A stretch of 64,000 bases of DNA, taken from assembly GCA_036172245.1 (NCBI GenBank), contig JAYWIR010000013.1, positions 1,550,001 to 1,614,000 of the forward strand, read 5' to 3'. Made by a program: the position numbers and the translations under genes. This stretch comes from Raillietiella orientalis (lineage: Eukaryota). Shown here in pieces: positions 1,126-34,576 of this stretch; the stretch's first letter is position 1; each line of letters begins with the position of its first letter. The notes beneath the pieces are model-generated. The model searched no databases and was not told the origin of the DNA. It worked only from the letters and a program-made list of their open reading frames with translations.

Positions 1126-4100
1126 ATGAATTTAGTTATACCTGAAGTAGCAGTCACAGCTGCAGCCATTCTTGTGAAAAGTGAACCAGGTGTTATGCAG
1201 ACAGTTCATCCCTACTCCTTGCCGACATATTCCTCCCATTCCTCTGCAGGAATTCATGCAGGATCTACTTCTGGCCCTTTGCATGGTTTGGCTACAATGC
1301 ATAGCCAGTCACATTCTCCTCAACTTCGGCATAAAGTCAGCATATTCATTGAGTCAAGTTGTTTTATTAAATCATTGTAGATTCCAGGTGCTGTTATTCC
1401 TGCAATGGGATCAGGTCCTGGTACCCAGCCTTTCCAGAGATTAAAAGTTGAAGATGCTCTGTCGTACCTAGATCAGGTGAAATTCAAATTCTCCAATCAA
1501 CCACAAGTATATAATGACTTCTTGGATATCATGAAGGAATTCAAAAGTCAAAGGTTTGGGATTTAGTTCTGTCATACAGAGATCTGAGTATGTTGTATAT
1601 TCAGTATTGATACTCCAGGAGTAATTGAACGAGTATCTAATCTTTTCAAAGGTCATCCTGAACTTATTGTTGGTTTTAACACATTTCTCCCTCCTGGTTA
1701 CAAGATTGAAGTTAGTATATATATATACGTATATGTATATTTTTCTTGGTGATGTATTAATTATGTTCAGGTTTCTACAAGCACCCCTGGACAGATGACC
1801 CAGACTGTGTACACACCTTCAGGGATTCATACTCAAACTCATACCAACCCTAGCCCTCCAGTCACTTCTCCTTTATCAACTCGTGCTACCACGTTACCGA
1901 TTTCAGGAAGGTCTGTTATGAGAGTAACATTTATTTGAGACTGCTGTATTGTTCACAATAGTGGAATTGCACAAGCAGCAAGTTTCCCTGTACCAAACAA
2001 TAGCCTTGCAGCATCACCTCTAGCAGCTCCTCCTCAGAATCAGCCTGTGGAATTCAACCATGCTATAAATTATGTAAATAAGATAAAGGTATGTTTTGTG
2101 TAGAAAAGCTTTTTGCACATTGTGTTTGTTGATAATTTGGTTAGAGTCGTTTCCAGGGACAGCCAGATATCTATAAGCAGTTTTTAGAGATTTTGCACAC
2201 TTATCAGAAGGAACAGCGTTGTCAGAAAGAAGGCACACTTCCCATTACAGGAAGAACACTTACAGAAGCTGAGGTGTATGCTCAAGTTGCTAAACTGTTC
2301 CAGAACCAAGAGGATCTACTTCTTGAATTTGGACAGTTTCTTCCAGATGCAACAAATGGGTCATCCACATTGGTAGGTGTTGTCACCATGTTGCAAAAAT
2401 CGGAAATACTGTCATTCAGGGAGATGCTTGGAACTCCCTAAAGGCTGCTAAAAAGGCAACAGGTAAAATTACCAATGACCATTCAGTGAGTGCCAAAAAA
2501 ACACCTGCCAAGCCTGTACCAGCTGCCAACAATGTTTCCCATTTGCCCACTTCTGGATCACCCACCCTCATACCAATGTCTACAGTTGTCAGCAGTCCCA
2601 CCACCACAGTTCCGGTGATAACTACTGCCAAGACAGCTCTTCCTTTAAAAAGATGCCATGGTACTTCTAACATGGTAGCAGGTTCACCTGCAGTTAAACG
2701 TGCCAAAGTGCACATGCTGAAAGATGTGTCTTTATCTGAGGCGGGACGATATGGCACTTTGAATGAGTATGCGTTTTTTGATAGGGTAAGTGTCTATCAA
2801 TAAGCTGAAAAGCATAACTAATTTTTCTGATAGGTGCGCAAAGCACTTCGAAGTACAGAAGTATATGAAAACTTTCTCCGTTGTTTAGTGCTGTATAATC
2901 AGGAAGTAGTTTCACGTACAGAGTTAGTTCAGCTAGTGCAGCCTTTCCTTGGAAGGCATCCAGAGCTGCTTCGTTGGTTTCGCAGCTTTGTTGATCTTCA
3001 GGATGATACAAGTGCTTACTCTGTGGAATCATTGCCTGGCTCGTATGCCAAGCAAGAGAGAGTTAGTAGTGACCTGGCCATGGAAATAGATTATTCAACA
3101 TGCAAACGACTTGGAGCCAGTTACTGTGCTCTTCCGAGGAGTCATATTCCTCCTCGCTGTTCAGGCCGAACACAGTTATGTCGTGATGTCCTGAATGATA
3201 CTTGGGTTTCATTCCCTTCCTGGTCAGAAGATTGTCAGTTTGTGACCTCCCGCAAAACACAGTTTGAAGAGTATGTTTACAGATGTGAGGATGAGCGCTT
3301 CGAGGTAAACAGTATGATACAAGAATGCATGGAAATGTGTGCGCTTTTTTCTTAGTTGGATGTGGTCATTGAGACCAACTTGGCTGCTATCCGTGCATTT
3401 GAAGGTTTGCAAAAAAAATTTACTCGAATGGGTCCAGAAGAAGCTGCCAAGGTACACTTGGATGATACCTTGGGAGGGACATCGGCCGTTATTCAACAGA
3501 GAGCAGTTAAAAGAATTTATGGTGATAAGGCAGCGGATGTGATTGAAGGCTTGAAACGCAATCCGGCTGCCTGCATACCTATTGTCTTACGTCGCTTGAG
3601 GACCAAAGATGAAGAGTGGCGTGAAGCAAGGAAAGGATTTAACAAAACTTGGAGGGAGCAAAATGAGAAATACTATTTGCGGTCCCTAGATCATCAGGGA
3701 ATTACATTCAAACAAACAGACATCAAAAATTTGCGCTCTAAAGCACTGTTGGCCGAGATTCAAACTCTTTGTGAAGAGCAAAGAGAGCAGTTGGAAGATG
3801 GAGCTGGTGGTGATAATGTTCATGGCCCTCATCTTGTTATGTCGTATCCTCGTGAACGGCAAGTTCTCACTGATGCGGCTCATCTCTGCATTCACCATGT
3901 GAAGAGACAGACGGGTATCAACAAAGAAGAGAAGCAGAAGATAAAGACTTTGTTGCGTCGTGTGTTACCTGATTTATTCCAGTACCCACGTCAGCAATCT
4001 AGTGATGATGAATTTGATGATGACGAATTAGAAGATTGCTTTGCCCAAAGCAGTTCTCCACAAAAGTCTGCTTCTCTTGATAAGGGTGCTGGAGGAGATG

Positions 4101-5272
4101 CATTAGATATTATTGTGAACGGAAATGATGGTGTTTGTGTCCATCCAGATGAAACTTATGTGTTCTTTATGGCCAATAGGCACTGGTATGTGTTCTTGCG
4201 TTTGCATCAGATTCTCTGTGAAAGACTGGGACGGATCCATCATTGTGCTCTTCAATTAATAGAGGAGGAAGCACAGGATGGGTGCTCTCAAAAGGAGTCC
4301 ACTGCTCTTGCATTGCGTCTGAAACCCAAAAGTAAGCATGCTAAGACTTTTTTTTTTTTTTCTTGCATTTACTGTTGCACTTTTTGCAGATGAGATAGAA
4401 GTGGAGGACTATTATCCCACTTTCTTGGAAATGGTACGAAATTTGCTGGATGGAAACATTGAACCTGGAACGTACGAGGATGCCTTGCGAGACCTTTTTG
4501 GCATTCATGCATATATTGCATACACTCTGGACAAAGTCATTGGCAATGCTGTACGACAGTTGCAGCATCTTATTCTTGACAAGCTCTCCCTGCAATGTAC
4601 TGAGCTGTTTCAGCAAGAGCAACGGAGAGGTGCTACAGGAGGATCTTGTAGTACTGCATATTATAGGCAGAGTGCTGAACAGAGTTATCAGAAGTGTGCT
4701 GAGCAGTTGCTTGGTGATGAGGGTTGTTTTAAAGTGTACATTGTGAGTTCAGTTTTGTAGGTTTCAGGGTCAATGCTTTTGTTTTCAGTATAAACAGGAG
4801 TGTCAGATGACAATGGAATTGTTGGATGGCAATTCCAGTACTTACGATACACCATTGCAAGCAGATCGTTTCTCTGAATATTTAGATAAGTACATGTTGG
4901 ATGCAGACTCTCCTTACTTGTCTCAGAAACCTGTGTTTCTAATGCGCAATTTACGTCGAATGCTCTGGGCATCTAGGTAGGTTCACATAAATGATCAGCA
5001 TTAGTCATTTTTTCTTTTGTGTTTTTTGTTCCTTTATTTTTTTTAGAAAATGCCACATTGCCAATGATATTCATGTGCATATGCAGCCCCATTCTCTTCA
5101 TATGAACTTCAGTGGCAGTAGTCAGAGTCTTTTGTACAAAAAAGGATCTCTCTATGCTGCACGCCAGTGCCACCATATTATCAGTGAGCGTTTACGCAAA
5201 CGGTTTCATTTGTGGCATTCCCATTGGTTGAACACCAAAGTGACAGATAATAATGCCCTCATTAATGTATGA
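1126..5272 (+). CDS. Sin3A: Paired amphipathic helix corepressor Sin3A; 5' end uncertain
   Basis: Exons: 1136(or ATG 1126)-1335, 1381-1553, 1605-1710, 1771-1910, 1962-2088, 2145-2372, 2420-2785, 2834-3304, 3356-4331, 4390-4742, 4789-4976, 5047-5272; all GT-AG and phase-consistent. Motifs: PAH1 [17 protein letters not shown]...[33 protein letters not shown]2 [19 protein letters not shown]3 [21 protein letters not shown]-interaction domain [12 protein letters not shown]...[14 protein letters not shown]. An AG acceptor at 1134-1135 means the true start may lie upstream. Confidence 0.96.
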
Positions 5273-5548
5273 ACTGGCTGCTCAGCCATGTGGATTAGTT
5301 TGTATCCAGTAGGACAAGCATGTGTATAAACACTGAAGCCACCACCCATTTCCCACTCCCCTAACAGAGCTCCTTATTTGTGGCTAAATCATTTACCACG
5401 TCGAGTGGCTGTGAATTGAAAAGTGCCAAGTTTTGCTAGTCATGAAAAAAACTTTTCAGCAAACTTGGTTTTTATTGAACTGAGAATCAAACTCTAGAAG
5501 TGGAGGACAGGCCCCTTACTTTCTAGGAGATTCCAACATTCCGTCCAA

Positions 5549-5554
5549 AATAAA
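5549..5554 (+). terminator. Candidate polyadenylation signal for Sin3A
   Basis: AATAAA about 280 nt after the Sin3A stop codon. Confidence 0.35.
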
Positions 5555-5599
5555 TTACCTGATTTCCTAAGTCATTCTCACTCTCGAAGTAAAGATCAA

Positions 5600-6275
5600 A
5601 AGCCTAGTCTCCACCAAACGTCCCTGCACAGACATACCCAGTTTTCGACGTAGAACACGAATGCGCGCGCACACAACCGCGAGAGGCAGTAAACACAGAA
5701 CAGGTTTGCATACTCGGCCAAAAAAAAAAAAAAAAAGGAAAAAGGATGCGAATGTGGAACTTTGAAATTTAAACTTTCAATTTCAATTCTGATTTGCGGA
5801 TTCGTTGGGAAACTTTCGGAGCGGGTGTTGACCAAGGTTTTTTTTTTTTGCATCGCATGCACTTGGTTCCACGTATCCACGAGCCGCGGAGAGCGCGTTG
5901 CGTGCTGAATGGCGGGGGAAAGAGAAAGAAAGAAAGAAAAAGGAAAAAAAAGGGAAGCGAGCGCTGTGGCAGCGCAACCGGCTGCTGCGCGGGGGGAGAT
6001 AGGTTTTCCCAGGCCACTGTGTACCTTGTCGCCCGAAGACCAGCCAACCGCGTGCTGCCACACCGTTGCCGCTCTGCTCCTCACGTCGGTCGAGCGCGGC
6101 TCGGCGGCGACCTTTGCGGAATGCAAGAAAAAGACCTGATCATTTGATAGGTGATGCTGACAGAGTGTGTGATGGCTGGGTAGCTGCCACGCTCGTTGCA
6201 CCTCGGCATGCGTTTGCAGTGTGGAGACCAGTTCTAAGCAGGGAGTGCGGTTTCCGGCAGCCTCCGTCCAGTACG
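5600..6275. promoter_or_regulatory. GC/CpG-rich promoter region of the Canopy gene
   Basis: Abrupt rise in GC and CpG directly upstream of ATG 6276, compared with the CpG-poor Sin3A body. Confidence 0.5.
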
Positions 6276-7094
6276 ATGAGGTGCTGCTTCTCCGTGTCCA
6301 TTTGCCTGATCTCTGTGGCAGTGGTGGCGGTGTTGTGTGACAAGGAATTAAAATGCCTGGGTGAGTAGGTTCGGGCCGCCCTCGTAGTCGTTGGCTGAGG
6401 GTAACGGCCCTCTTGCTGACAACGTGTGACGGTGCGTTCACACATTCCGTTCGAAATGCTGGGGTGTGTGCCTAATCGTTTCCTCAGTCTGCCAGAAGCT
6501 GGTGGAAGAAATCGAGGCCGAAATCGACTTGGTGGATCCAAATAAGAAGGTCAACGTTGGCACCTTCCGGTTGGACCATTCAGGTGATCAACGGAGCGAC
6601 TTGGTAGGGTTTTTTTTTTTTTTTTTTTTGCATACATACACACACACACATATATGTATATTTTCCTTTTAGAAGCAATATGCTCGCTCCGCAATCCATC
6701 TGATGGAATTGCTAGAATCCGTGTGCGAAAATTTCAAAGATTATGCAGAAGCTACATACAAGAAAACCGATCAGAGGACTCTAATACGGCTGGTTCGCAA
6801 TGATGGGAACATGAATCCCGATACCAAGGACGTCAATTTCGTGCAGACCGATGATTTGAATACCAGGCTCAAGTTCTACGTACGTAAGCCAGCCGTAATT
6901 GCATTTCGAAATTTTTTTTTTTTTTTCTTCCTCCCCCTTTCCAGTGTGAAAACATCATTGAAGATTATGAAGATGACATCACTCGCCTGTTTCGCAACAA
7001 TACTCCCGACGTGGACGTGCAGTTGTGTTCCAAAACTGCTCACCTTTGCAATGTTACTACACCTTTTGAAGATCCTTTGAAAGAAGAATTGTGA
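6276..7094 (+). CDS. CNPY2: Canopy-family (CNPY2/seele-like) saposin-like ER protein
   Basis: Exons 6276-6360, 6488-6603, 6673-6879, 6945-7094. Signal peptide MRCCFSVSICLISVAVVAVLC; KCLVCQKLVEEIEAEIDLVDPNKKVNVGTFRLD; YARSAIHLMELLESVCENFKDY; LKFYCENIIEDYEDDI; C-terminal KEEL ER-retention motif. Confidence 0.9.
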
Positions 7095-9658
7095 TGAAAA
7101 ATGAATGCATTTTCGTACAACTCTGTGCCGTGTACGCACCTACACGTCTTGTGCGCGCACCAAGCGTGCCGATGCAGATTACAAATCTATCAAAATTAAA
7201 TCAAGAGTGTTTTAAAAGGTGTATCTTGTTAATGTGGTGTCCAGAGTACTTAACTTCATTCGTTTACCTGATCAAGTTGTTGCCTTTCACAATGGTGACG
7301 TTGTTTATTGAATATAGCTTTTTTTTTTTTTTTTTTTTTTATAATACACCGTACGTCATTTATCATTTGTTTTTGCTCCTTCATACACACACACACACAC
7401 ACACACCCATGTATCATATATATGTGTAAAGATTTAAAGTAAACTGGAGTGATTTAACCAGTAATAACATAAATTAACATGATATCAAGTGTTTTCAAAT
7501 GCCATTCTGCTACTCTGTGGCTTGTGCAAGAGCGCATGAAACAAATGTGATATGGGTGCAATTTTCACAAGGAAAACAAGTATTCAGTGATGGAGAACTT
7601 GATTCATTCTTTCAAGAAATCCCTCAGCTTGATAAAGGAAAAAGTCGAAATGCATTGTTTATTTATTAACCTCCAAAGTGCTTGATGAGTACACCTCCAT
7701 GAAACCGAAATGAAACAGTAAGGCTCACGATTTGCAAGAGCAGTGACTGCAACAACGACGAAAAGCAAAAGCAGAGCAGTCCATTTTTTAACGATTCTGA
7801 AGCATCAGTACATGCTAAGGACAAAGGGTAAGTTTTCAGTTTGGTTGACACAGAAGAACCACCAGCAACAGTAGCAGCAAACCATCAGACTTGGGGACAG
7901 GCAGCACTTCTCAGAAATGATGATTCCCCCCCTCCCCTTTGGGAGCATTTTCAAGCTGCACTTGATGGATAGGGGGAACCTGCTCCCCTGTTTGCCCATG
8001 AACCTACATCTAATGAGCCAGAAAGCATGTCATGTTTTTCTGGCTCGTGAGATGAGGAAGGCTATGAAGCATAAATAAGATTTCTTCCCTGTTGTTGCAT
8101 GTCAACAAACTCTACGAAAATTCCATTTTTCCACATACTATCCTTTGGTTGCTCATGTGAATTTTCGAAAATCAGGTGCCTATGACGCCAAAACATATGC
8201 ACCAGGTATGTTTCCTAAAGACTGCACAGTGCTTTTGTTGCACAATTTCTGCAAACCTTGTGATTGACAGCAATGTTTTTCACCTTCTAATCAAACTGAA
8301 TTAATTAACGCTGCTCTTAAATTGAGAACCATCTGCTCCTACAACCTGCTCTGAAAAGCAAGACATAGATAGGTTGTGAGTGCCATTCTTAGTTTCTGTT
8401 GTTAATGGTGGACCTTGAAGACATCATTCTTTCCCTCATAGCACGGGTGTCGGAAAAAACTGGGCAGTCTTCATGACTAACTCAAATAAATGACGAATCA
8501 CGTAGCAATACGTGAAAAACCGGAAGCTCCTGTCTTGCTATGGAGGAGACATCCAGGCACTTGTGGCAGTGAAGCAGCAGTCTTCTCCATTCGTGTTTGG
8601 AGTTTTCACTGTTCAAGCTTGTTTGCTTCCAACTTGGGTCTCTTGTGGACCACGTCGCCGGAACCATCGCCCCGAATTACTTCTGAAGCTTGGAGAGGAG
8701 GCTTGAGGGAACATTCTTGATAGCTACTTAAGCCTTTAGATAGATCTTGTCTTCGATGGGCCCAAAAGGATATTATGTGTTTTCTGCCTCTTCGTCCAGA
8801 GTTTCCCAAGGCGGTTCCAGCTGCCCTTATCTGTCTTTGTATGTGTGCGCCTCTCTTCATTCCAAATGTGTAGTGAATCGATATTCTTTGAGTCACATCG
8901 ATGGAAAGATTCCACGAATCAGCATGCGGATGCACTTCCTAAACAACAGATTAGTATTAGTGTTTGTTCTCTCTCCCATGAAAAAACATGCGCAAAGTCT
9001 TGCGCGAACTTCAAGGAGGAAAAGCTCGTTTTGGATCTCCACCGAAACTACTTGCCCACCTGGCTGCATTGACAGCAGTGCTGACGAACAGTTTTCTGTA
9101 CACACTTCGTTTTTTTTTCTTTTACGAAGCAACGATATTCAAAGCTTTCCAGTTAGAGATTATCACCGATCGGGTTGCATCTCTGGCACCGAGGGCGACT
9201 GCTGTTCACATGATACGGATATGGGCCCTCGGCGCCGCACTCCCTCCGTACTTTCAGTGATAATTTAGCTCTGAATCGGGAACGAGACGGTGCTGCTTAC
9301 AAAGGAGGGAAGGATGGTGGTGGGGGATGCATCAGCATCTGCAGATGGAGACGGACACAACCTTTGCGGTGCGATCTGCAGTTTCTCACCTTTCCAGAAT
9401 GCAGTTCTTGCACAAAGCAGGTTTTGGCAGATCCGGGGGCGCGGAAAACGGGACGAAGAGGAGATGACAGTCACGGATGCAATCACATGGTTTGCTAGGG
9501 TGGCGCATTATCTGACCTTTTTCTTACTTACACAGGGCCGCGGCTAAAGCCCTGGCCCTTTTGATAGCCAGCTCTTGGTTCTTCCAGTATTTCATGCATT
9601 GCATCATCCAACCTTTCAGTAATCTTTATTCTTGCTTCAAATTCTAAATTTTCAGCAC

Positions 9659-9955
9659 GAGCTAGCGCAACCTTTATTTTCTGTTGCAGATATTGGCAGT
9701 GACCGAGTAAAGTAAAGTCAATGACAATTCAGTTAATGCTTTCGCAATTAACAATAACAGTATTTTTCATTCATTTAGGGCTTTTGGAATGCTCGGCTAA
9801 ACCCTATGTCCTGCTTTGTATATTAGCGCATGAGATTGCTCATATATCCACTGGCCATGCATTAGCGATGGTTAGTTATATGGTAGGGCTGGTCGCTACT
9901 ATTATTATTAACCCTCAGATTGCTAGCACCATTTTGCTAAGTGGTGTAACGCTCA
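9659..9955 (+). pseudogene. Frameshifted, intronless bacterial-type M48 (BepA/YfgC-like) metallopeptidase fragment; candidate endosymbiont-derived insertion
   Basis: Reads ELAQPLFSVADIGSDRVK / VNDNSVNAFAINNNSIF / IHLGLLECSAKPYVLLCILAHEIAHISTGHALAMVSYMVGLVATIIINPQIASTILLSGVTL across two frameshifts (~9710 and ~9765). It has the NAF, GLL and HEXXH motifs in M48 order. Confidence 0.7.
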
Positions 9956-9959
9956 GGAT

Positions 9960-12900
9960 GGTTAAAAAACATGGAAACGGGGCGCAGTTACCGGAGGTAG
10001 AGCCTTGCAACCGAATCATCTCCAAACTGCGAGTCACTCAGTGAGGAAGGTGCCCCCGGCGGAATAGCGTTTCCTTATCAAAGGTGCGGTCAGTTGCTTA
10101 GCGAAATGACCCGCTTTAGTAGCAACGAGCGACATCAGCATAGTTTTTTTGTTTTCTTTTGAGTTTTTCTCCAAAAGCATCCTAGCCGACGGCCATTCGG
10201 CACAAGCGTGTAGCAACGGTTACCGCCCGCCCGTAGGAGTCCGGTGCCTGGATGCCGGGATCGATACGCGCGGCTCCCTTCTTTGATGTACCACACTCAC
10301 CGACGGAAGCAATGATCAGATCCCCCCGTGTCTGACCCTGCAGAGGTGCTGGCACGGAAGAGGAACCGATCAGGAGTTTGCGCTTTCGCCTGTATCCATC
10401 CCGAAACCACCGGACCGCGCAGCACACGGACGTTCGAATGTGTTCACTGGGAAGACTCGCCTCCAGGAAGGACGAGTGCTGCTGTCTTGGCAGCAGCAGC
10501 AGAGGACCCAGAGCACGGCAAGCGTACGGGAGGCGAGCGACCGCACGTGCAGGGTGTGTTCCGTGTTCGCGTGGTGACTCGATCGAATTCCTGGCCGCCG
10601 CCTGCCTCCGGTTGCGATGGGAGAAGGGGGCACGTTCCAGCCTTGCACTCCCCAGTCCAGTTCGATCCAAAGCCGAGCAAGAAAGGAGACGAGCAGGATT
10701 CCCCTCCAAGCACGTCGCGCTACGTGCCTCGTCACCGGACCGTCCCGCGGGTGGGAGCGAACCCGTAATCGCGCTGTCGACTGCTGTACGTCGGGGAAAA
10801 GGCGCACTCAGCCGAGCGGGGGGGGGGGGGAGATAAGTGAAAATCCCGCTAACCAACATCCTGAGTGTTCCGCATTGGGTGCACTTGTTGTTTTATCTTT
10901 TTTCCATCCTGAGTGGAAGGGAGATTGGGAGGGGGGGGGGGAGAAGAGAACGCACTGCGGAGGGACCGGCGTTCAGCAAGCGCGCGCGTCAGAAGCGTTC
11001 CAACCGTGCGATTGCTGCGACGTCACCCCTGCGGTTGTTCAACAGATGTCACGGATGTGCCGAGGGCAACTTAGCTCCTCGCTCTATGGAGCACGGAAAG
11101 CCTCGCCGCCGCTCTGCTCTTCATCTTCGAACGCGCTCGTCGCCATGGAAACGTGCGCGCTCCAGCTTTCTCGCTTTCGGTGCGAGCCTACCGGACCCCT
11201 ACGCCTCTGTATCGCGTGCTCGCTGCACGCTCCGCGCCTTCCAGCCGGGAGCGGGTGGAAGTTACGCTAGGGATAGTAGCCGAGCGGAAACAGCTGTCTC
11301 TCTCCCGTTGCCCGGCGGTCGAGCGACCTCGCAGCGATGCGCGCCATCGGCGAATGCTGTTTGGAGCTCACCGGGGCACCGGGGGCAGACAGAACCCTCC
11401 CTATCAGTTGGGCACACGTGCAGAACGCCCACCACGTTCTGGCTGCCGCAGCGTTGCCTTTTCTTGGGCACTCCGTTAGCTCGATTTCCTTCCGGGAATC
11501 CCGGAGGCACTGCGGGAAAGACGAGTGGCCTCGAGAGTGGTCCCATTCGCGGGTGCCACAGGTGCGCGTAGCTCAGCGAAGCCAATCGATGCCGAGAGGC
11601 AGGCAGCTCGTTGCGGCGGCGCCTGTAGGAAGAATTCTCCAAGTTCTCAGACGGTGCAAGCAGCGCTGGGCACGGAGCGGTTGCTTGCATTTCCTTCATG
11701 GCGGCGGAACGTTTAGTTGCGCGGGGACTCCGCAGATGGCAGGTCTACGCTGCCTTGCCCCAGAGGTGGAGCGAATGGAAGTACACTTCAGTTGCAGCTC
11801 ACTCTCTAGGTCAATGACGGTGGGCTAAAGGCTGATTGTCGCGCTCCTTCCGTTCCCGTTCCCGTGGGAGCGATCTTTCCCGGAAGAGGCTACGGCCTCT
11901 CCGAGAGCAAGGTAGCATGTTGCTTCGTGCATCTCGCAGCCTGGAAGGAGTGGTAAGATGCCAAAGGTGCGCCGCAAAGGTACCTTCCAGCGCTCGCCCT
12001 CTTTCCAGTATCCTTCGCAGCGGACATCCTTTTTTTGAAAAGAATTCAGTGGAAACCTCCCTTGGAGGTCCGCAGACCTAGGCAATGGCTGCTGCTACCT
12101 TCGGGGTGCTCGCCCGGTCCAGTCGACGTGCATGAGAGACGATGCCCTCTCAGCAGACGGCGGAGGGAGTTTCGCTCCTCCCCGTCGTCGTCTGCGCGGG
12201 AGAGTGTGGGTTACTGCCGCGTCCCGAAGCAAAGATAGGAAGGAAGGGCGTTGCCCGGGAAACGAGGAAGGATAGCGATTCCCTCTGGTTTCTGCGTGGA
12301 GCGAACCGTCCGCCACTGGTTGTCTGGAACCAGTGCCTAGGAAGCTCGGCGCTTCCTAGAAGACGGCCGTAATGCCGCCCAAGTGCGAACCTGGAACCCA
12401 TAGTCTCTCATCCACCAAATCCAGGAACCTCCCTCCAGCTTGAAGCAACAGCTCGAAGGGCTTCTCGCCTGGACCACGTGGCCACGAGCTCGCGAGACTG
12501 CCTCGTTCACGAGGTATTCTCAGTCCATCCTCTAGCTCATGCAGTGCGGCATGTGGCATCTCGCGGGAGGTGCTCCAACTACGAAACGTTCTTCCTCAAG
12601 TTCTCCGCTGCTTCGCTACGGTACATCGAACGCCATCTCCTCCGCGCGCATCCTGGAAACCGTTTCGAACCCAGTTGCTTCTCCGATTCTCTCCATCGCG
12701 CAGGATCCCTGGAGGCTTGGCTCCACGGAAGCAGTTTAGGTGAGGCCTTTTCGACCAATCGGAGCAACGAATTTTCCCCAAAGTCATTGTCGATTCTTTG
12801 GAAATCTACCGCCTGCCTAGGCGTCACTTCAAGATCCTTTTGAGAACTCTCTTGGAGGGGGTTCGCGCGCAACGACTGGCTTTCTCCCGTGGGTCACAGC

Positions 12901-15300
12901 TGTCTTTCAACCTTGTGTCTGCAGGAAACCTACACTGTATGGAGACCAGTTCTCCAGAAAGACATCCGTGCTCCCGTCGGGCGGCTGAAAGCATTCGGAG
13001 GATTCTCTCTCTCTCTCTCTCCGTCTTTCTTTCGTCGGGAACACTCCCCGTCCTGTACACTCGCGCTGACGCCCGCCCACTGCACGGATTCAGCCGTCGT
13101 CCTCTGCTGAAAAGCAAGGCTCTTCCTCGACCCGCTTCGATCTCAAGGGAAACCGAAGCTGCGTGGCTCACCGTAACCGTGGCTCAGTGGAAACGGAGGG
13201 AGCAGGTGCCCGTGCACGCAATGCGTTTGCCGGCTGGGGAGAACACCAGCCGCCGGCGCCGCCTCCGATGCCGAGGCACCTAGGAAGAGCGCGGAGCGGC
13301 AGGAATTCAGGCCCAGCTGCGCCAGCGCTTGTTCTATGCGCCGTTCCCTGAGGATCCCGCGTTCTTCTCGGGCGGACTGTCCGACTGGGATTTCTCCAAG
13401 GCGCAGCATCGCGCGCACGAGGTCACCGGAAAATCCTCTGGTTGCATCCCTCCCTACACCTGGCGGTCGTGAAACTCGACCTTCAGCTGCCGGTGTCGCA
13501 TCTTGGTGAGGCAAGAAGTGGCTGCAAAGGGAAGGCAAGAAAAACCGTCAAGGGGGGAAATCACCCCCACCCCACTTCTTCTCTTCTCCAGGAAACGGAA
13601 GCGGCAGCGGAAAAAAACGAATGAACGAACACATGGAAATTTTTTGCAAGAGGGAGTCATTAAGGTGCTCGGGGTGTCAGGAACTGATGACGGCTTGAAA
13701 GACCGGCTCGACGGGGCCAACGACGAAAGGCGTGGCTCGGGGGGCGGGAGCGATGGATTCGCTCACGTGAGGGGTCTGTTCTGCCCCTGCCAGCGATACC
13801 GAAAAGAGGAACGCGAGCGCGTGCCGAGGGAAAGCAGAGGTGCGCTCTCTCCAGGGGATGATGCGTTCGCCCGCGGGCGTCGCGCACTTGGGGGGTTGCG
13901 CAGACGCGTGAGCAGTGAAATGAGGTGGGGTGGAAGCGGCGACGCCGCGAGCGCGCGCTCGCGGATGACGCAGAGGCGCTTCGAGTATTCCGCCTCCTCC
14001 CGAATCTTCGGCTGCCCTGCGAGTCAGGCTCGGAGTCACGTGACTCGACAATCATTCCCTCCGACAACGACAACCCCTGCATGCGTCTTCAAACACGCCT
14101 GGAAATTTTTGCCCCATGAAAAACCGTCTCAACTTTCCAGTTCTCTCGTAAAGGAAAAGTCTTCCGTTCCCTTGGAAAAGGGAGAACGCAAACAAACATG
14201 CCGACCCGGTTTGGGCCAATCGAGTTCGGCGGTTCTCACTCGAACAAGAAACAGGAAAGTTTTGCGAATCTCCGACCCCTTGCGGACCCCTGGTCGAAGT
14301 CCAGGTCGCAAACTGCCCTGTTGGTCTGAGTCCTGCACGGAAACTTCGTCGTGATTCCCAGGGAACTTTTGCTTCGTCTCAACATCACACGCCTGTCTAA
14401 TCAGCTACACGCTAAAGATGCACTCTTCTTTGTCGGTTATCTATGTGTCACCAACCAAACAACTCACTTCCACTTCCTGAACAGACTTGGGTCTTATGTG
14501 CTTAAAAATTCTTTCCGTTACCTGAAATCTCTGTGGAGTGTTCATGGCAGCATTCAACTGAAGAGCACAAAATAATCTTACAGCAACTCCGACTGTCTTT
14601 CGTTCGTGCTAGCAATTAAACAGATAATTACCATATTACCTTAGCACGGTCGACGTACCGCAGCTGTTCCACGAGTAACCGAGAAAACCTTTTCCTGTGT
14701 TACTCATTAGAAAATATCTTCAAGAAACGGTTCCTGTAAACTTTTTCCCAATTCCTCATCCTATTTCCTCAAGCACAACACTTCCAGTTCTCAACACTTA
14801 CCAACCAAGAATTAGTTCTCAAAATTTTCCCCTACTTACATTAGAATGCCAAAGTAGGCATTATTTGGGTTATTGAAACCCTTTCCAAGCTCAAGTCTAA
14901 CGACTATCATGTATTTACTAAGAAATAAACGACCTTATCCTCGTTGACCCTCAATAACTAGAAATATCCATTTGCCAGCACATCATCACTAAACAAGACC
15001 CTACATGCAACCACCCACAAAACCAATCCCATTCACTCGTTGACATCCGAGAAATAAATATCGATTCCCATTTAACTTCACTCCGATAGAAAAGACCACA
15101 AACCTACAAGTACTCTACAAGTACCTATTCACCATCTCTTTTTCAACACAAGCCTCCAATACCGATAATCTCATACTCCCAAAAAACACAAAATCCCATA
15201 ATTATCATTGTCAGGTTCAACTTCCTGGATCAACATGATCGCGTCCACCTTGCCTAGACACATTTTCCGGTACATGCCAACATCGTGTTACGATGACTAT
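9960..15300 (-). mobile_element. Heavily decayed L1/Tx1-like non-LTR retrotransposon, possibly near full length
   Basis: Relic motifs in the expected order on the - strand. Endonuclease-like LQES...SMYRSEAAENLRK...GGRFLDLVDE at 12870-12400. RT-like KEMQATAPCP...ELPAS...SRPLV...LQTAFADG at 11700-11340. SIERGAKLPSAHP at ~11070 is the degenerate RGVRQGCPLSP position. The ends are approximate and inclusion of 14350-15300 is tentative. Confidence 0.6.
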
Positions 15301-17137
15301 AACGCGACGTATAGATTATTTTATTATTATTCACAGAGACGTATTCCATGATTATACTATTCAGCCAACCGTTCTCAAATAAGTTTGCATTTAAATCTTA
15401 TTTCAATATTAATGAACATTCGTGCATCGAAGATCAACATATCGTAGTTCACCTTATCCTGTCTTATGTTGCGTCTTCATTGGAACTTCTAATTAATTTT
15501 TATTAAGAAAATTACTTACTCTTGAAATGAACTATTCCTGAAAAATCAAAAGAAGGATATACACAAACACTAAAGTTCCTCGCAGCTTACCAATTACCAA
15601 GCAAATTCACCTAATATTTTTCCCCAGACTCAAATCATGTAAAGGTAAGTCCTCTTCCCCTTCCCTATCCCTCAGTTATCGATCGTCTATACTAAAAGCA
15701 CCTAACTCTATTTTGCAAACGTCTTATTTCTTCGCAACACAAATAAAACTTACAATTACATGGCATAATTAACGAATGGCAACACTGCCTCGACTCGTTA
15801 AATTACAACTGCCGGCGCACAGTTGCCAAACTCTCTTAAGAATTGGCTACTTAATCATTTTTATACTCAGAATCGAATTCTCTCCTAATCGGATGCCATT
15901 AAAATGTCACTTGATACGAGTCAACAGCGAATCCTATGTAAAACAAATTCTCAATAGCCTTTCCAGTAAACTGAAATCCCAAACTGAATTCGAAAACAGC
16001 CTATTTGAAACTGAAATTAAATATAATTTCCAGTGGCACATCAGCCAGGAAATCTGCGCCGTAAATGCAATCTTCAAACTGAACTGATTCTTGATTTTTT
16101 AGACAAATAAACGTGAAGTGAATGTAAATCATGAAACGCAAATTTTAAATGCAGCGACTCTTAGTGAATGAGAAAACGACTTTGCAAGCTCTTATTTTGC
16201 ATTACATAATTCTCGTTTTAAAGTATCAATATACAGACACATTGAAAAAACTAAAAATCACATCACTGACAGCAAATCATCACTACTCTTTACTTAATTT
16301 CCGATAATTACACTATGATTAATTTTGATTACTTATTACCATATTATAGGATATCACTATTATGTGCGTTTATGGTTTTTACGACTGTCTCTCTCCACGA
16401 TATGAATGTTATATGTATGAATTTGGTTTAATAGTGAGGAAGTAATATGTTTGTTTCACACAATAACCTCGAATCCATTTTTAATTATAAATTTGATTTT
16501 TATTAGTATGTGAAAATACTATAAAGTGAAGAAAAAAAAACATAAAAACAATAGCTTTGTCATTCTAAACTTATTTTATGAACCCTTTGTGTTGAAATGC
16601 AATCTTCTGGCTCCCACTCTCCGAATGGCGGCCTCCTGTTCTCCTGTCCGAGCGTCGGCGGTGTTTTCCGGGATCCTCAGCAGGAGCGGCCACCAGCTCA
16701 TGGCGGTTGGAGAAAAACGTGGCGCGGCCACGCGCATCGACGATATGCGCTCACTCTGCTCTCAAGAAAAACCTTCCAGTTCCTGGATCCTTCAATGGCC
16801 TAAAGTCCCTTATTTCTTGAATCCCTGTCCTCCCAGTGAAACCGTTCCTTTCTTCTTTTCTTTGTATTTGAAATTGTTGTCTTATTTGCGGGTTCTATAT
16901 GGTCAGAAACGGGTCATCGAGCGTTTCTCGCCTACACAACGGCCGACATTGATGAGTACGTACCAACAGGTGTTCTTCGTGAACGTTAACTTCCGAAGGT
17001 ACCTGGAATCGCGGACCTGAGCCGTGTTGTCATCGGTACTTGCCTTTTCTCCCCTCTGCTTATGGGAGCGAAGATAACGTAAATCCATCAGGTCCGTTTG
17101 AGCCATGTCGTTGTTTCCGGAGGACACGAAGTTACAG

Positions 17138-17140
17138 ACA

Positions 17141-17178
<38 letters not shown>
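17138..17178. repeat. Compound (CA)n(GA)n microsatellite
   Basis: Directly visible. Confidence 0.9.
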
Positions 17179-17400
17179 TAACGGGAGACGACACCACCCT
17201 CAGTCGGAAAGCTGGTAGACGGTGGAAGCTTTGCCAGATCAGAGGCGTGCTACCAGATTTTTATTTGTTAGGCTTTCGCACAACTGCCGGTGCGTATCTA
17301 TGGATGCGCAGCGATGCACCCCTGTAACTCTCTCGAAAAGTGCGCTCACCATCAGTGTGATCGGCAGCGGATGGGAGTACCATCCACGGAGGCGGGTGCA

Positions 17401-20400
17401 TCACTCAACCTGCTCCTTCTTCTTGAAATTCAGAGATTGGATCACTTTCTGCCAGTCGCTGCGGTTCTCTATGAGTGAAGCCATCACGTCCGTGGCGTCC
17501 GCCAGCTTGGCTTTCTCGTCTCGGTTCAGGACCGCCCTGATGACGGTTTTTTGCTTTGGGCTTAGAGTGCGCGGGTAGCTTATGCGGAACCCGATGACCA
17601 GGTCTCCGTGCGCTCCTGGTTTTTCGTAAACGGGCATGCCTTCTCCTTTGATGGTCTTGAGATATTCGTTGCTGAAGATGAGGATTTAGTGGCATAGGAT
17701 GGTCCAGTGAAGCAAAAACATCGGAAACTCATTGCGCTACGAAGATTGCGCCTCTACTGTACTCAGAGGAGGGTACGGACTCAGCAGGAAAAAAAAGACG
17801 ATCAGCTTTGGGAAGCTCGCAGTGAGGAAGGGAGGACTTCGTCCACAAAAGCCAAGGACCTATCGTGGAAGGCAGACGCAGTCGCAAGCTCCCTCCGGGC
17901 CAAGCGACGATTTCACCTCAGGATGACGGAGGAAGAAGCCGTTTGCTGTGCCGCGAATGTGGGTCTCAAAAGAATTAAGGAGGACCTCGAATTCTTGTCA
18001 AGTTCACAGAGGTCTCGGCGATTTGCAGAGATGGCAGCAGCGCCGTGGATCAAGTGGACGGAGCCGCACAGTGCGGGAGCCGTGGGAGAGATTTCCGAAA
18101 CGGATCCTCACCCTCTCCTTCGCGTCTTTACACTCGATTTTCCGAGGGGAAGCCAGCCGCGTGAGGTCAGCTTTCCGTGTACCAACTCGCATCCCAAAGG
18201 AATCCGTGAGGCACGGCAGGACAGCAAATAGAAGCAGGATAGCATAGAATGCTTTTTGACTTAGCCTTCTACAAATAGAAGGCCAAGGCAAAAAGCATTC
18301 TGTGCTACGACACGGAGGAGTCCTAGGAGCGGACGCAGCAACTTCAGGGGAGAGAAACTCGTGAGTGGCTGGGGGCACCGAGCTCCTCGAGCATATCGGT
18401 TCACTTGCCAAGAACTCTTCGGCTTGGTATTCGCGGTGAGCAGGAATAGGGACAGCGATCCTCGCGTCTTCTCAGGACTGCGAGCCTGATCCGCCCGCTG
18501 CGAAGCAGACGAGTGAGGCTGCCTGCAGCAGTCCCCCGGTCCAATGGTGTCCAATGCTAACGGGATGCTCTCTCGTTAGCATTGGACTCCGCTAGGTTTC
18601 GGGCTCTGCAACCCCTTCGCGGGTTTCACGCAGGCAGGGCGAGTCCGGCGCATGGACCCTGTTCCTCCACAAGAACAGCGACGCTGATGGTAGCGGGCAG
18701 CGGCTCATCCTCTGCCAAAACGCGACCGAAGAGGCTCCTGGACGCTCAGGGTCCCATCTCGTGTCTCCAGCGAGCACGAGGAGGTACCGCCCCTCTGCAT
18801 GTGCCGGTTCCGTGTTAGCTGGGAAACGCGCGCGCAGCGGCCCACGCTTCCTTCTGGGGGACCCGGAGGGCGGGCGGGAAGGCGCACTTCGGGAGGGAGG
18901 GACGCGTCGTTCCGCGAGCAGGAGCGCACGCATTACCTGACAACGTTGTGGATGAAGATGGGCAACTTGCGATTATCCAGAGTGGTGATAGTCAGCTTGA
19001 AGCCGGCAAGGGCGCTCGACAGGTCAATGTCGGCGGTGTATTCGAGGTTATCTCCCTTCCTGGAGAACCAAGGATGCGGTTTCTCAGCAACAATAAAAAC
19101 GAGGTCACCTAGGGAGAGCTTCCGTTGAGCATCTTGCAGATGTCAAGATGACCTTACAAGCACTGGGTTTCCTACCTTACCTCAAATTTCTCGCAGTGCT
19201 CGCAAATTTTCGAGCGCGCTCACGGACTCCCCTCTAAAAAATAGACTGTGCGGGATTTTGTCATGGTGCTGCGAAGGCAGAATCTGTCAACCATCGCGCC
19301 AGCCTTGCATTTCTTGAGTTGCGCTTCAAGCGACGTCTTCGGCTTTGGTTGGACTGGTCCAGCTTCGTCTTTTTTTTTCTTTTTTCTTCACGTGAAGGCT
19401 TTCTCTTGTCCAGAGTCGTTCCTTAGCGAAACCTCAATGCCGGACGGTAGACGAAAAAACGCCACTGGTCTGAAGGGTTGGGATTGCTTGCACCGGGTCG
19501 CGGTAGTTGATGCGCTTAAGACACGCAGACGAATCCGATGAGTCTCCAGCTATAACCTTTGTCTTCACGGAAGGATTTCCTGGAAGAACGTTCGCGCGAC
19601 AAGTCAAGATCCTGGTCCAGTCAAGTGGCCAGAAAAATCGATGATCGATGCCTTTGTTCGGAAAGAGGTTCTGAGGAGATTCCTGGTCAGGTCAACCGCG
19701 TCTCCTGAGAGCGTGGCTCCACTTCGAGCTCCGAGGATCTCAGGAGGTCAGAAAGACACTGTTTCAGCCACATGAGAGCACCTTGGCCGTCGATAGTGAC
19801 GCACTGCTCCTCCACATTCGGTCGGGACGCGGCATCCGACTGAAGTTGTGGCTTCCCTCCACATGCCGCCTCCAAGGATGAAGTGCACTGTGGTTCCTTT
19901 CTCGTGTGGTTCCTTTCTTGAAACTCCAACCGTATGTCTCTATGTACTTCACCTCAACTCCACTCCTCCTCCTCCTCCTCCGAGATGCCCGTGGTCAAAG
20001 TGTCTTCGAAAGCCGCACTTTTCCCGAGCGCTTCTACCCTGGCAGCTATGGAACTAACCGTTCCGTTCTCCTTTACGCTATATTGGGATGGCTGATGATC
20101 ACCCAAGCCTATCTTCTTCTACCCTCGGAATCTCCTCTCTGGAATGGCACTATCGTTTCGGAGTGCAAGCAAAAGAGACTCGCATTTCCTCCTGGATCGT
20201 TCCGTTTGGGGACTTTCCTCTTGCTCGAATCCCTGCCGGCGACTTTCACTCCGGGAAACTCAGGGAGGCGCTCGCATCGCGGAACTCCCTGAACTCCATG
20301 CTCTTCGGGACCCCTGCACGCATGGCACCCGCTCGGCGGCGGTGATGGAGATCCGCAGCAGATGCGTTGTTGGTAGTGTGGAGTATCCGGCCGGATACTC

Positions 20401-23400
20401 CACACTTCCTCGAACCATGCTTCGTTTTCAAAACACTCCTGCCCTTTAGCTGTTGTCTTCCCTCCTTCTCGAGGAACGAAAGTTTCTTGAAGTCCAAGAG
20501 GCGACTCGATCAGCTCCTGCCTCACGAGTCGGCTTGCGTTACCACGGTGTTTCCAATCGTCGTCCCCTAACCTGAATCCTAGGAATTCCTCATCTCCCCG
20601 AGCCCTATCGCATCGAATTCAGGTGTCCCCAGGAGAGCCGACGGCTCTGCTTGAAAGAGGAGATGAAATTTCCCGTTTTTTCGATCCCTCTACCAGGATA
20701 CAAGGATTGGTCCATGGTCCGAAAATGCGGATGGAAGAGGCTTCCTTCTCGACGAACGCACTCAGCGGAGTAGACGGTTCCTGCTGTCGAGGCTGGCTGG
20801 ATGAGGTGACCAACTCCGGAAGAGCCATCCTCGTTCGTCTTAAGGGAGAGGACGCTCTCACTGTGAAAATCAGCCAGGAGGCCGAAAGATGAAGATCCTG
20901 TTCTCTGCTGCCGGCTCTCGTATCTGTGCTTCTTTTTTTTTTCTCCCAGTTTTTTTGATCGAAACCGACGTTGCCGCCATCCTCCTCTGTTGCCAAGCTT
21001 GCAATCCGAAGCATCAGCTTCTCTTCGGAAGATGCCGCAAGTGGAAGAGGTCCATATTCCGCTTCGCCTTCTCACCTTCTGGATTCTTCCATCGTTCCAG
21101 AAGCTCGCGGATGTGAACGATGGAACAAAGGTAACCCTGTTAGAAGATTTTCCCTGGACCTCAGTCGTAGGGAGGGACTTCGTGGTCCCTTCTAATCGCA
21201 ACCTGGAATCTTGGCGCACCACATCACGAGGAATCTCTCGCTCAGCCATCTATGACTGCTATGGAAATTCAGGGAATCTGAGGGACTTCAGGCTATACCC
21301 GATACGGAGACTCCTTCCCCTTCCAGTCTTTCGCTCCCTCCTCGTTTTCCAGGAAACGAAACATCACTCCTAAGGGGAAGCCGAAAACCCCTCCACCGAA
21401 CGGGGAGTTTGTTTTTTTTCTTTCCTTTCTTCAATTTCGATGAACGACGTTCCTTTATTCAAGGAAACCTACTTCTTTTCCCATAGCTATTCACGCCTCG
21501 CTGTTTCTTTGTATTAGATGACCGTTTCTTGTTTTCATGACGACGGAAGGGAGATTGAGGTCCGAGGAAGAAAAAGGAGAGGTGGGTCACTGTAAAAGGA
21601 GACAAAATCGCATGCGCACTGAATGCACGGATCGGTGACGGAGTGACCGTCACTTCCAGTACATAATTTCTTTGGGAGCCTCCTCGGATTTGTTTCCCCT
21701 CCTCTTTTCGAACACGTTCGCGCTATAGTGATGAGGAATTCTCGCTGATCACCTGGAGTCACGTCTTCCGCTTGATCGCCTCCCTCTTTGAAAACGATTT
21801 CTGCTCCAGTCGGTATCCCAGGCTTCAGAACGCAAGTGAGGATCTTCTCTTGCCTGGAAGTGCTTTTGCCGTCTCCGTTCAGTACCTACAATTTCATGGA
21901 CGATCAAAAAAACCACCCTGTAGGCGCGAACTCGTACGTGACTAGGCTATCACAAGCAACAGCAGAAGCAGCACAGCCAGAAGCCACGGTCACCGAAGTC
22001 GGTCATGTCCCAGCGCTCCCGCTCCCGCCCTCCGGTCGCCACTGCCATCTCGTTCTTAGCTATGTCCTTGCCAGGGCCTCGCTCTGTGTAGCGTTCCCTT
22101 TGAGAGGGCAAGCGATGGCACGCAGTGCGTTGCGCGCTTTCCGGGTGCACTGCCTCCTCCTCCTTCTCCTCCTTTTTCTTCCCCGTCCCGAGGCTTCTCA
22201 GCGTTCTCGAGACAGGATAGCCACCACCGGGAGGAGTTCCTCGGCTTCCCCTTTTGCGGCTTGATTGTGTAAGTTTCCCTTGGAGCCCGCAGCTGCTATT
22301 CCTTCCTGGGATACGCTACTTTCGATGGTAGCGGGCAGAGGCGTATCCTCTGACAAAACGCGACCCAAGCGGCTCCTGGGCGCTCAGGACCCCATCTTGT
22401 GGCTCCAGCGAGCAGGAGGAGGTACCGCCTCCAGATGCAACCCACCTCTCCCACTCCAGAGTTGCTTCTGAGGTTTCTGGAGCCTGACAGTCAGGAGTAC
22501 CAAGTGGTGTTCATCGAAATTGAAGAAAAGAAAGAAAAAAAACAAATTTAAATTGTTTTTGCTGTTGTCGCAGGTGGGAAAGTTTGAAAAAGTCCTCGAG
22601 GAATTACCGTCCGGTGTACAAGGGTGTGCTGAGGACAGGACCCCGACGGTCTCGGATCTGATTATCCGTCTGCGAACGTCCTCCTTGTCCTCCTCTCATG
22701 AAGGAAGCTCTGCGAATGCAAGGGCGAGTAGCGCCACCGCTCTGCATGCCGGCCTCACCCAGAAATTCTAATCTTCGAGTCTTCACTCCGCTTCGCTCCT
22801 AAACTCCGAAAACCCGACAGATGCGTTTTCCTGGGGTTGTGGGAAGGAGCAACGCTGAGAGAGGAAGCAACCTCGTGCGGTTCTTTCGGTGCCGAGTCAC
22901 GGGCCACGAAGGGACGACGACCACGACAGGAACAGGTGCGGAATGGTTCGATACGATAGGGAGAATACGAGACCGGAAGACCGAATCCCAGGTGCACCCA
23001 CTGCAGTTTCTTCCTCTTTCGTTTTGCCTTGCACCGTGTGACCTTCTTTGCCGCCCATCCAACTCACAGAATTGGAGAAACAAGGAAAAAAAAGAGGCCA
23101 AGAAGTTTTTTTTTTTCTTCTTCTCCGAAACAGCTGGTTTGTTCTTGAGTGTCGAAGCTCTCGCTACCGTTTGTGAAGAGCATGCACATTTCTTTGGAGT
23201 GCAAGAAACAAGCGTTCGAGGGATGTTCCTATTTTGCCGAAGGAATACAAGCAGGCAACTCAGCAGCAAGGTCAGGCGCGTGCGTATGGCATCGGCATGG
23301 CGGGAGGGATTTCCTTCGCACGCAGGTATAAGAACGCGCGCACGGCTTCGATCCACAAACAATTGCACACGAAAGATGGTTACTCGGTAACAGAATCCAG

Positions 23401-32400: not shown

Positions 32401-34576
32401 TTAAGCTGCACAATAAAGGTCAACATAGGTGATACAAAAAAATTCTTCGACTAGATAATGAAAATCAGCAAAAATGGTCAACCAGAAAAAAAGTGACAAA
32501 TCAGTTTGCTGTTTACAAACTTATCCCCCATAACAAGGACCTAAGGAATACTCTGCGGAGCCGCAAGTGTGGGGGTGTCTTAAGGTCAACATTCATAATA
32601 TCAGATTCCATTATGAATACACGAAGAATGAAAGGCAGCCGGCGAGTGAATGTTTCGTGGAGGGGAGAGAGGGAGAGGGGAGGGGGAGGGGACAATAACT
32701 ATTGAGAATGCTTTTCTCGATTGTTCGTGAGCTCACTGTCTGAACGAAGTTACTTTTTTTGCATGTCCTTAGGGCAGTTACGTTCTAATCTTGAGAATGC
32801 AGGAGTGTGCAAAGAATTTTTTTTCAATGTGCTCTGTCATATAGCTTCTGAGTGTGAATTGTTTGAGGGCAAATACAGAGTTTTGTTTTTATGATCTAAA
32901 ATGACACAAAATCTATGAAATCAAGGGTGATACATCCTTTCTCTACAGTGAAGCAGAATGTGCAGTAGGATTTTTATGATGATATGTGGGTATTTCATAG
33001 ATGATAATACCCTCCATTGTTTTGTTTTGTTTTTTTGCCTTAACTGTAGCATCATCAATCGATGTCTCAGTAGCACAAACAAAAGCATTACTGAATTCTG
33101 AATGTTAATTTGGTTGTATTTCGTAGTATGTGAACTCTTCTATTTTTTTCCGATTTCTGCTTTCTTTTCTACTTTTACTGTCATTCATTCTGTATGTTTT
33201 CAATTGCTAGGCCAAATTAATCTCAATAGTAATTCAGTGTAATCTTACGACGCCTAATCACGTTTCATAATTCTTAAAGGGGTCTCTTCAAAAATATTCT
33301 TTCTTCTCTACTGTAGTCTTGTTTGTTTTTTCGCAGTTGTTTTGCAGACTCTCAATACTGAATGTATGCCAATGTTTTTTCGTAGTTGTTTTCGATGTTG
33401 TGTTTTTTAATGACAGAAGACTTTATTAAAAGTTTTCGAAACGTATGCTGTCACAACGAATCTAAGCTATTCTCTGGGGAATAAGTAGTTTTACACAGTT
33501 CAGAAACCTTAAGATATTAAAGAGGCATTATATTTTCCCAGACAGTGCCAATGAACCCAGCTTTTTAACAAAAAATATAACTTTCAATACAGTGACCTTT
33601 GAAAATTCGAGCTAGCAGCTCACCTTGCTTATAGTTGAGGGAAAGTGTCAGTGTTACAAAGTCTCAGAAAGAGCCTGAGAGTAATTGGAAAACAAAAAAA
33701 ATGTTTTGTCAAAAAAAAAAAAAAATGCAAGTTGAATTCGTAGTACTCCCAGTTGGCATTGGTTAGAAAATTTCATTTCACAATCTATACAAAATTGTAA
33801 TGACCAAGTGATACTATTCATTGTAAAATGGAAGGTAATGGCGATTTATTACGAAGATCATGACTCACATAGAATCAAAATCAAAAAAATAGTCTGGAAT
33901 ATACTCACAACACAGTCCTAAATGCTAAGACCCATCTTATGTACGTTACCACTTCGAGATGGACATGGAGAGAGATTTGTTTCGATCAAAAAAGCATTGC
34001 ATCTTGTCCACGTAACACAATTCAAAAAATTCAAAAGGGAACAATTTCATTGAAAATGAAAGCCAAGTCAAGGAAAAGCAGCAACAGAGTTACGGAAAAT
34101 TTTGACTATTCAAATAAAGGTAGAAGGTTTATAAACATAGGAGACAGGACTATATTAATTTCATGTAAAACATATATTGGACCCTGTAAATTATGGTATC
34201 CATTAGGGTACCATAGTTTACAGAATCCAATATAAACATGTATGCAAATGTGCACTTAAATGCTTTCCCTCCCTTGAGCTTTAGGTTGCTAAATATTGTA
34301 ATCGGGGTTCCGAAAGTAAGCAAAACAAGCAACTACTGTGCTTCCATCAAATTAGATGCCAAGTGAATGCAAATAATTAACAGGAATCAAAACTTTTGTG
34401 TGCAAGATGCACTGAGCAATCCCCTAGGCTCAGAATAACAAATTTATTCAAATGATTGCGAATATATATTATATCATGCTCATGGTGACTCGTAAGCTCA
34501 TCAGTTCATTATTATTTTCACCATGGAAAAATCTGATGTTGATTTCAGTACCATATTTCCATTAACATCACAACTT

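Follow-up and report, generated by a model that had tools for sequence, protein, structure and literature searches.

A segment of about 300 nucleotides in a contig of Raillietiella orientalis (JAYWIR010000013.1 of assembly GCA_036172245.1) reads, in broken frames, like part of a bacterial M48 peptidase. This raises the question of whether bacterial DNA has been integrated into the chromosome of an animal host and, if so, from which donor. We analysed a stretch of 64,000 nucleotides of this contig (positions 1,550,001 to 1,614,000), here called the window, to which all other coordinates refer; the segment lies at 9659 to 9955. The initial annotation had proposed a transfer from an endosymbiont of the Rickettsiales such as Wolbachia. 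Our analysis leads to the reading that positions 9610-9956 are, with high probability, a genuine and non-functional nuclear Wolbachia transfer (nuwt).

The M48 piece and its lesions

The window was compared by blastn with 16 Wolbachia loci taken from species-representative genomes. With all 16 loci, positions 9659-9956 aligned with nucleotides 100-437 of the M48 coding sequence at E-values from 8e-62 to 6e-32. The alignments contained 42 gap columns and the limits of homology were sharp, at 9659 and 9956. When five full-length Wolbachia M48 proteins were searched against the whole window by tblastn, three collinear segments in three frames were found at 9659-9712, 9717-9767 and 9766-9954. Together they span residues 34-145 of 429 with a summed E-value of 5.7e-29. 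The same five proteins had no match above noise in the rest of the 64 kb, and no further M48 exons or gene parts appeared there. The features of this piece are the following.

9659..9956, plus strand: decayed part (codons 34-146) of the gene for the BepA-like M48 metalloprotease of Wolbachia, which has about 426-429 codons; a pseudogene (blastn, tblastn, Pfam)
Between 9712 and 9713, plus strand: 5-bp deletion, first frameshift, which brings a stop (TAA at 9713-9715) into frame (MAFFT, ORF table)
9763..9767, plus strand: run of five T residues, four in Wolbachia, second frameshift (MAFFT)
9829..9843, plus strand: zinc-binding motif HEIAH (HExxH) of the M48 domain, still readable (translation of frame 9703-10044, Pfam range)
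9862/9863, plus strand: 36-bp in-frame deletion, 12 codons lost just after HExxH (MAFFT alignments)

The Pfam profile PF01435 (Peptidase_M48) matched the frame 9703-10044 with an E-value of 5.8e-6 and 26.7 bits against a cut-off of 20.3, and the match was limited to profile positions 50-100 of 186. This score above the gathering value and the HExxH motif place the piece in the M48 family. The NCBIfam models gave sub-threshold scores only, 16.2 bits for HtpX and 11.7 bits for BepA (NF052400, M48_BAM_BepA, cut-off 570), as would be expected for a quarter of the gene. The HEIAH motif and the N-A-F and G-L-L motifs are common to the relic and the Wolbachia gene. The matches by blastn, tblastn and PF01435 bear out the bacterial M48 fragment that the initial annotation had placed at 9659-9955.

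A 64-residue piece of the translation was searched against 5.8 billion proteins, with longer candidates allowed. Among 67 candidates, 46 proteins matched at E <= 1e-3. All were M48 proteins, most of them of about 426 residues with TPR repeats, and every named one came from Wolbachia or from a metagenome-assembled genome called 'Rickettsiales bacterium'. Metazoan OMA1 was absent from the 46 significant matches. The identities lay mostly at 59-68%, which is too low because the window carries a deletion. The preference for a BepA-type protein of the Rickettsiales or Wolbachia over animal OMA1 is upheld by these searches at the DNA and the protein level.

We then looked at the distribution of the gene. 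In a family-wide search around one Wolbachia entry it was present in 85 of 98 genomes and free of internal stops in nearly all of those that carry it. The DNA of the window matched the M48 locus in 53 of the 98 at E <= 1e-17. In two genomes (G087, with locus L098, and G081) the locus consisted of broken remnants only, in several pieces with internal stops; the gene is therefore dispensable in some strains of the Wolbachia family.

The three reading frames quoted earlier exist in the window. The frame of 9623-9715 ends with HELAQPLFSVADIGSDRVK and a stop, the frame of 9711-9800 begins with SKVNDNSVNAFAINNNSIF, and the frame of 9703-10044 contains FIHLGLLECSAKPYVLLCILAHEIAHISTGHALAMVSYMVGLVATIIINPQIASTILLSGVTL. 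The two frameshifts that had been reported were traced by MAFFT to the 5-bp deletion at 9712/9713 and to the extra T in 9763-9767, and the 36-bp deletion had been missed. Positions 9871-9918, for which an intron had been considered, align without a break to the Wolbachia gene, and therefore there is no intron. One open frame, a complete catalytic domain and a C-terminal TPR domain, which would mark a working protease, are all lacking. The relic keeps 112 of about 426 codons, without the remainder of the protease domain or any TPR domain, and encodes nothing useful.

The uvrB piece and the probable Wolbachia donor

A second bacterial piece, 48 bp of uvrB that the initial annotation did not contain, directly adjoins the M48 piece.

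9610..9657, minus strand: 3' end of Wolbachia uvrB, about the last 18 codons, with the UVR motif AENLEFE..ARIK.ITERL (genome and family-wide searches, pairwise alignment)

When the first 20 kb of the window were searched against five Wolbachia genomes, positions 9610-9656 matched wCori (G004) at a locus distant from M48 with an E-value of 1.6e-4. This locus holds the last codons of uvrB, which end in MHAENLEFEEAARIKSIIERLSNVP and a stop. The stretch 9610-9657 matched the uvrB end in all five Wolbachia genomes, and in about 30 of the 98 family genomes it matched a locus separate from M48 (E 3e-8 to 9e-3). The match sits at the end of a uvrB reading frame with the NLEFE motif in 13 of the 14 loci that were fetched. 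In pairwise alignments with L102-L104, 46 of 48 bases were identical, apart from deletions of 6 bp and 2 bp. An extension of the piece below 9610 into intergenic DNA of the donor was considered and not adopted; matches up to about 9602 and 9591 in two genomes and weak alignment extensions gave hints only.

The uvrB of the type closest to the relic (L102-L105, L108, L109 and L031) ends early, with ARIKKLL(KG) and a stop, because an A run is one base shorter. Other types end in ARIKSIIERLSNVP and a stop. The reading ARIK.ITERL of the relic resembles the longer form.

The uvrB piece stops 1-2 bases before the M48 piece and has the opposite orientation, so that the two lie head to head. The distance between uvrB and the M48 gene in the five Wolbachia genomes is 49, 417, 310, 405 and 456 kb, and the M48 piece of the relic begins within the coding region of its gene. 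The junction thus reflects a rearrangement rather than the gene order of the donor. The relic at 9610-9956 is accordingly a composite of two unlinked Wolbachia fragments.

The donor was placed with a codon alignment of the window and 55 distinct family sequences, which were left from 83 after the removal of 28 exact duplicates. L017 (Terriglobia, with a match to the TPR part only), L098 (masked or a pseudogene) and L099 (partial) were left out of the M48 tree. The nucleotide identities to the window fragment in this alignment were as follows.

251/298 (84.2%): L061, the closest of the 55
250/298: L053 and L006
About 82%: the type that includes P0005, assigned to group B by its source
67-71%: the divergent Wolbachia-like sequences L074-L077
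63%: L078
48-57%: more distant family members

Relatives that are not of the Wolbachia type thus did not exceed 63%. In the tree, calculated under GTR+G with support given as SH-aLRT/UFBoot, the window was nested in a clade of 47 Wolbachia-type tips (93.7/84), and the next deeper node separated this clade from the distant members at 98.3/100. The phylogeny of the bacterial M48 family accordingly puts the fragment inside the Wolbachia-type clade. Within it, a placement next to the A- and B-type tips, as their sister, was weakly supported (32.3/65, from 298 bp), and the terminal branch of the window was long, with 0.18 substitutions per site. The signature SAKPYVLL was found in the window and in 7 of the 46 Wolbachia proteins; among these 7 are the ones that bear the names of Andrena labialis and Glossina morsitans, whose Wolbachia we take to be supergroup A.

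The donor could instead have been a bacterium of the Anaplasmataceae or Rickettsiales other than Wolbachia, such as one from a sister genus. The long terminal branch, the weak placement among the Wolbachia types and a closest identity of just 84% would fit such a source. However, the identity drops to 67-71% with L074-L077, to 63% with L078 and to 48-57% with the distant members, and the fragment falls within the 47-tip clade. It also has SAKPYVLL in common with Wolbachia proteins, and the uvrB piece is identical to Wolbachia loci at 46 of 48 bases. We regard a donor outside Wolbachia as highly unlikely.

Host surroundings and decay

The relic lies in non-coding DNA of an arthropod chromosome, with a canopy-like gene about 2.5 kb upstream of it, and is bordered on both sides by DNA with host genes in the same 64-kb stretch, a statement that is true within the assembly only. 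The genes recognised around it were the following.

2327..4977, plus strand: exons of host Sin3, a paired amphipathic helix protein (ORFs, Pfam Sin3a_C at 4323-4977, homologues)
6430..7091, plus strand: canopy-like gene (DUF3456), which among the recognised genes lies closest upstream of the relic (PF11938 in three ORFs, E 8.7e-7 to 1.3e-13)
25439-25948, downstream: host DnaJ-like ORF (ORFs)
35248-36737, downstream: host kinesin motor ORF (ORFs)
42720-44177, downstream: host Drp1/dynamin-1-like ORF (ORFs, homologues)

The best 120 listed homologues of the Sin3 exons were all from arthropods, as far as proteins were named, with identities of 49-67%. For the Drp1 exon, the best 120 listed were named arthropod proteins except for one fish Drp1, with identities of 33-56%. 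In a tree of the window and 34 Sin3 sequences, from which P0048 was dropped for its split match, the window stood on a long branch of its own, apart from the insects, decapods and chelicerates in the sample, and we therefore refer to the host simply as an arthropod. The Sin3, kinesin, Drp1 and DnaJ-like genes were unusually diverged from all arthropods in the databases. These comparisons suggest a host lineage that evolves fast or is thinly sampled.

Against the five Wolbachia genomes, no other credible Wolbachia DNA was found in the 64-kb window. Hits at 34436, 35425, 45716 and 62051 covered 33-50 bp, were AT-rich or of the (TA)n type and were judged to be chance matches. A (TA)n/(TACA)n repeat at 45716-45790 matched a Wolbachia genome spuriously, at an E-value of 3.8e-6, and short AT-rich Wolbachia matches are therefore no evidence of transfer.

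The initial annotation had described the piece as wedged against a LINE relic, which we did not recover. The 126 stop-to-stop ORFs of at least 55 residues in 4323-17324 were compared with domain families, and none had a reverse transcriptase or an endonuclease among its matches at E <= 0.01; a badly decayed relic could escape such a search. Rfam gave no match in the whole window. The region 8000-15000 had no self-match elsewhere in the window, and no tandem repeats were seen around the relic. The two exact junction patterns had 0 and 0 matches in metagenome contigs.

Directly to the right of the relic, a 4.4-kb block at 9957-14400 has a G+C content of 55-63% and a CpG observed/expected ratio of about 0.9-1.16. 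Its long ORFs in all frames gave no Pfam domain, and neither tandem repeats, copies elsewhere in the window nor plasmid matches were found for the block; a CpG island and an unknown repeat are among the things it may be. At 17000-24000 lies another G+C-rich stretch (50-60%), in which numerous ORFs overlap on the two strands and no gene is obvious. At 26000-48000 the G+C content is 31-40%, compared with 50-60% at 17000-24000, and the composition of the window is very patchy.

The piece had been called AT-rich, and this was confirmed in steps of 50 bp, with a G+C content of 30-44% over 9600-9849 and of 50-66% on either side. Compared with Wolbachia, the fragment is nevertheless rich in G+C, with 40.3%, compared with 32.9-34.9% for the Wolbachia genes in the corresponding columns. 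Changes from AT to GC outnumbered those from GC to AT by 19 to 4, which is not significant alone (binomial p 0.067), and in a narrower set by 23 to 8 (p 0.22).

The changes private to the window were then sorted by codon position. Compared with 18 A- and B-type sequences there were 27, distributed over positions 1:2:3 as 6:7:14, and compared with all 42 Wolbachia-type sequences there were 12, distributed as 4:4:4. Seven Wolbachia-Wolbachia pairs, when pooled, gave 98:26:212. The share of second positions was thus 26% among the private changes of the window and 7.7% in the Wolbachia pairs (Fisher p 0.006), and in the three comparison sets this excess had p-values of 0.006, 0.025 and 0.014, which are approximate because the pooled Wolbachia pairs overlap. 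The excess at second positions and the raised G+C content agree with neutral decay in the host. Three indels, a stop and these signals of relaxed constraint show the relic to have evolved as host DNA does. Half of the private changes are at third positions, and some of the 16% divergence therefore goes back to evolution within the bacterium. It follows from this bacterial share that the donor lineage is poorly represented among the sampled genomes.

Contamination of arthropod assemblies by Wolbachia is common, and reads of a live Wolbachia that were misjoined into a host contig would place bacterial DNA next to host genes without any integration. A chimera with a live symbiont would, however, have given intact, near-identical sequence with bacterial neighbours. 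The piece at hand comprises only about 350 bp, lies deep in the 64-kb sequence and has host genes to its left and right. Of the 98 family genomes, 85 have the M48 gene, nearly always without an internal stop; the copy here shows two frameshifts, a 36-bp deletion and a stop. Even the closest of the 55 distinct sequences differs from it by 16%, its G+C content is raised, and the relic fuses genes that are 49-456 kb apart in five Wolbachia genomes. An artefact of assembly is therefore very improbable. We infer integration from how the piece has decayed, from its composite make-up and from its place in the contig, because a usually intact gene is broken, the divergence amounts to 16%, two unlinked genes are fused, the 350 bp lie amid animal genes, and the changes are of a relaxed-constraint kind.

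We also considered that the relic was co-opted, with a role either as a non-coding RNA or through a short peptide in which the HEIAH region is retained. Over 113 codons the frame 9703-10044 has no stop, and low-level transcription is reported for some nuwts (PMC4299567). This open frame begins and ends in sequence that is not homologous to the Wolbachia gene, and what it could encode lacks the region of the third zinc ligand, the rest of the domain beyond profile positions 50-100 of 186 and the TPR domain. In addition, private changes occur at all codon positions and the window has no Rfam match, which together leave co-option with hardly any probability. A host exon of an OMA1-like mitochondrial M48 protein with 9871-9918 as an intron can be dismissed almost with certainty: HExxH and the Pfam match are common to all M48 proteins, but none of the 46 significant matches was metazoan, the 84% nucleotide identity to Wolbachia runs unbroken across 9871-9918, the reading frame is broken twice and the 64 kb hold no further M48 exons, so that protein search, tblastn and blastn all speak against it.

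Origin, meaning and comparison with known transfers

For the nuclear Wolbachia transfer that we favour, the following course may be envisaged. Wolbachia DNA would have been freed in a germ-line cell and captured at a chromosome break via end joining. The two pieces may have been ligated together at insertion, or they may be what internal deletions and rearrangements have left of a larger insert. Since its insertion the DNA has decayed neutrally: indels and a stop codon have arisen, bases at all codon positions have been substituted, and the G+C content has drifted somewhat toward the higher value of the host.

A more far-reaching proposal, which we put forward with little confidence, is that the relic goes back to an ancient infection of an arthropod lineage without a close sequenced relative, in line with the low identities of its Sin3 and Drp1, by a Wolbachia lineage outside the sampled A- and B-types, and that the junction is the remnant of a much larger insert. 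If a Wolbachia lineage of this outlying kind was involved, the locus could help to date and type a symbiosis in a lineage without a recorded one.

As a fossil record, the relic indicates that the germ line of the ancestors of this host was exposed to Wolbachia and that bacterial DNA has been fixed in the chromosome for long enough to gather about 10% or more private change. Such relics mark the history of infection. For contamination filters it follows that a Wolbachia-like stretch of this kind should stay in the assembly and not be removed as a contaminant. The relic adds no new mechanism, and the kind of transfer is well known.

The source gene of the larger piece is the Wolbachia BepA-like M48 protease of about 426 residues with PF01435 and TPR repeats (NF052400). 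The relic is homologous to its codons 34-146 and has about a quarter of the gene, with two breaks of the frame and 12 codons deleted. A similar course is known for organelle DNA. NUMTs arise when fragments of mitochondrial DNA are taken up at chromosome breaks, frequently with several unlinked pieces strung together, and they then undergo neutral decay. The process proposed for the relic is the same, whereas its source is a facultative bacterial endosymbiont and not an organelle.

The closest comparison is with other nuwts. In PMC4299567 they are put at about 20% of the sequenced arthropod and nematode species and at 80% of the known Wolbachia hosts. Cases include Drosophila ananassae, Brugia malayi, the Wolbachia-free Sirex noctilio and the 'genomic fossils' of Dictyocaulus viviparus; PMC3849323 also belongs to this literature. 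Small decayed remnants without a current infection are reported for the woodwasp (PMC8962096) and the lungworm (PMC4046930). Like the relic, nuwts are Wolbachia DNA on a host chromosome, fragmentary, rearranged and pseudogenised by indels and stops, and like the relic they mark a past or present infection. The well-known nuwts range from kilobases to a whole genome, whereas the relic is very small with about 350 bp, and it is a composite. Recent nuwts are near-identical to the resident strain, whereas the relic looks old and differs by 16% from the nearest sampled Wolbachia.
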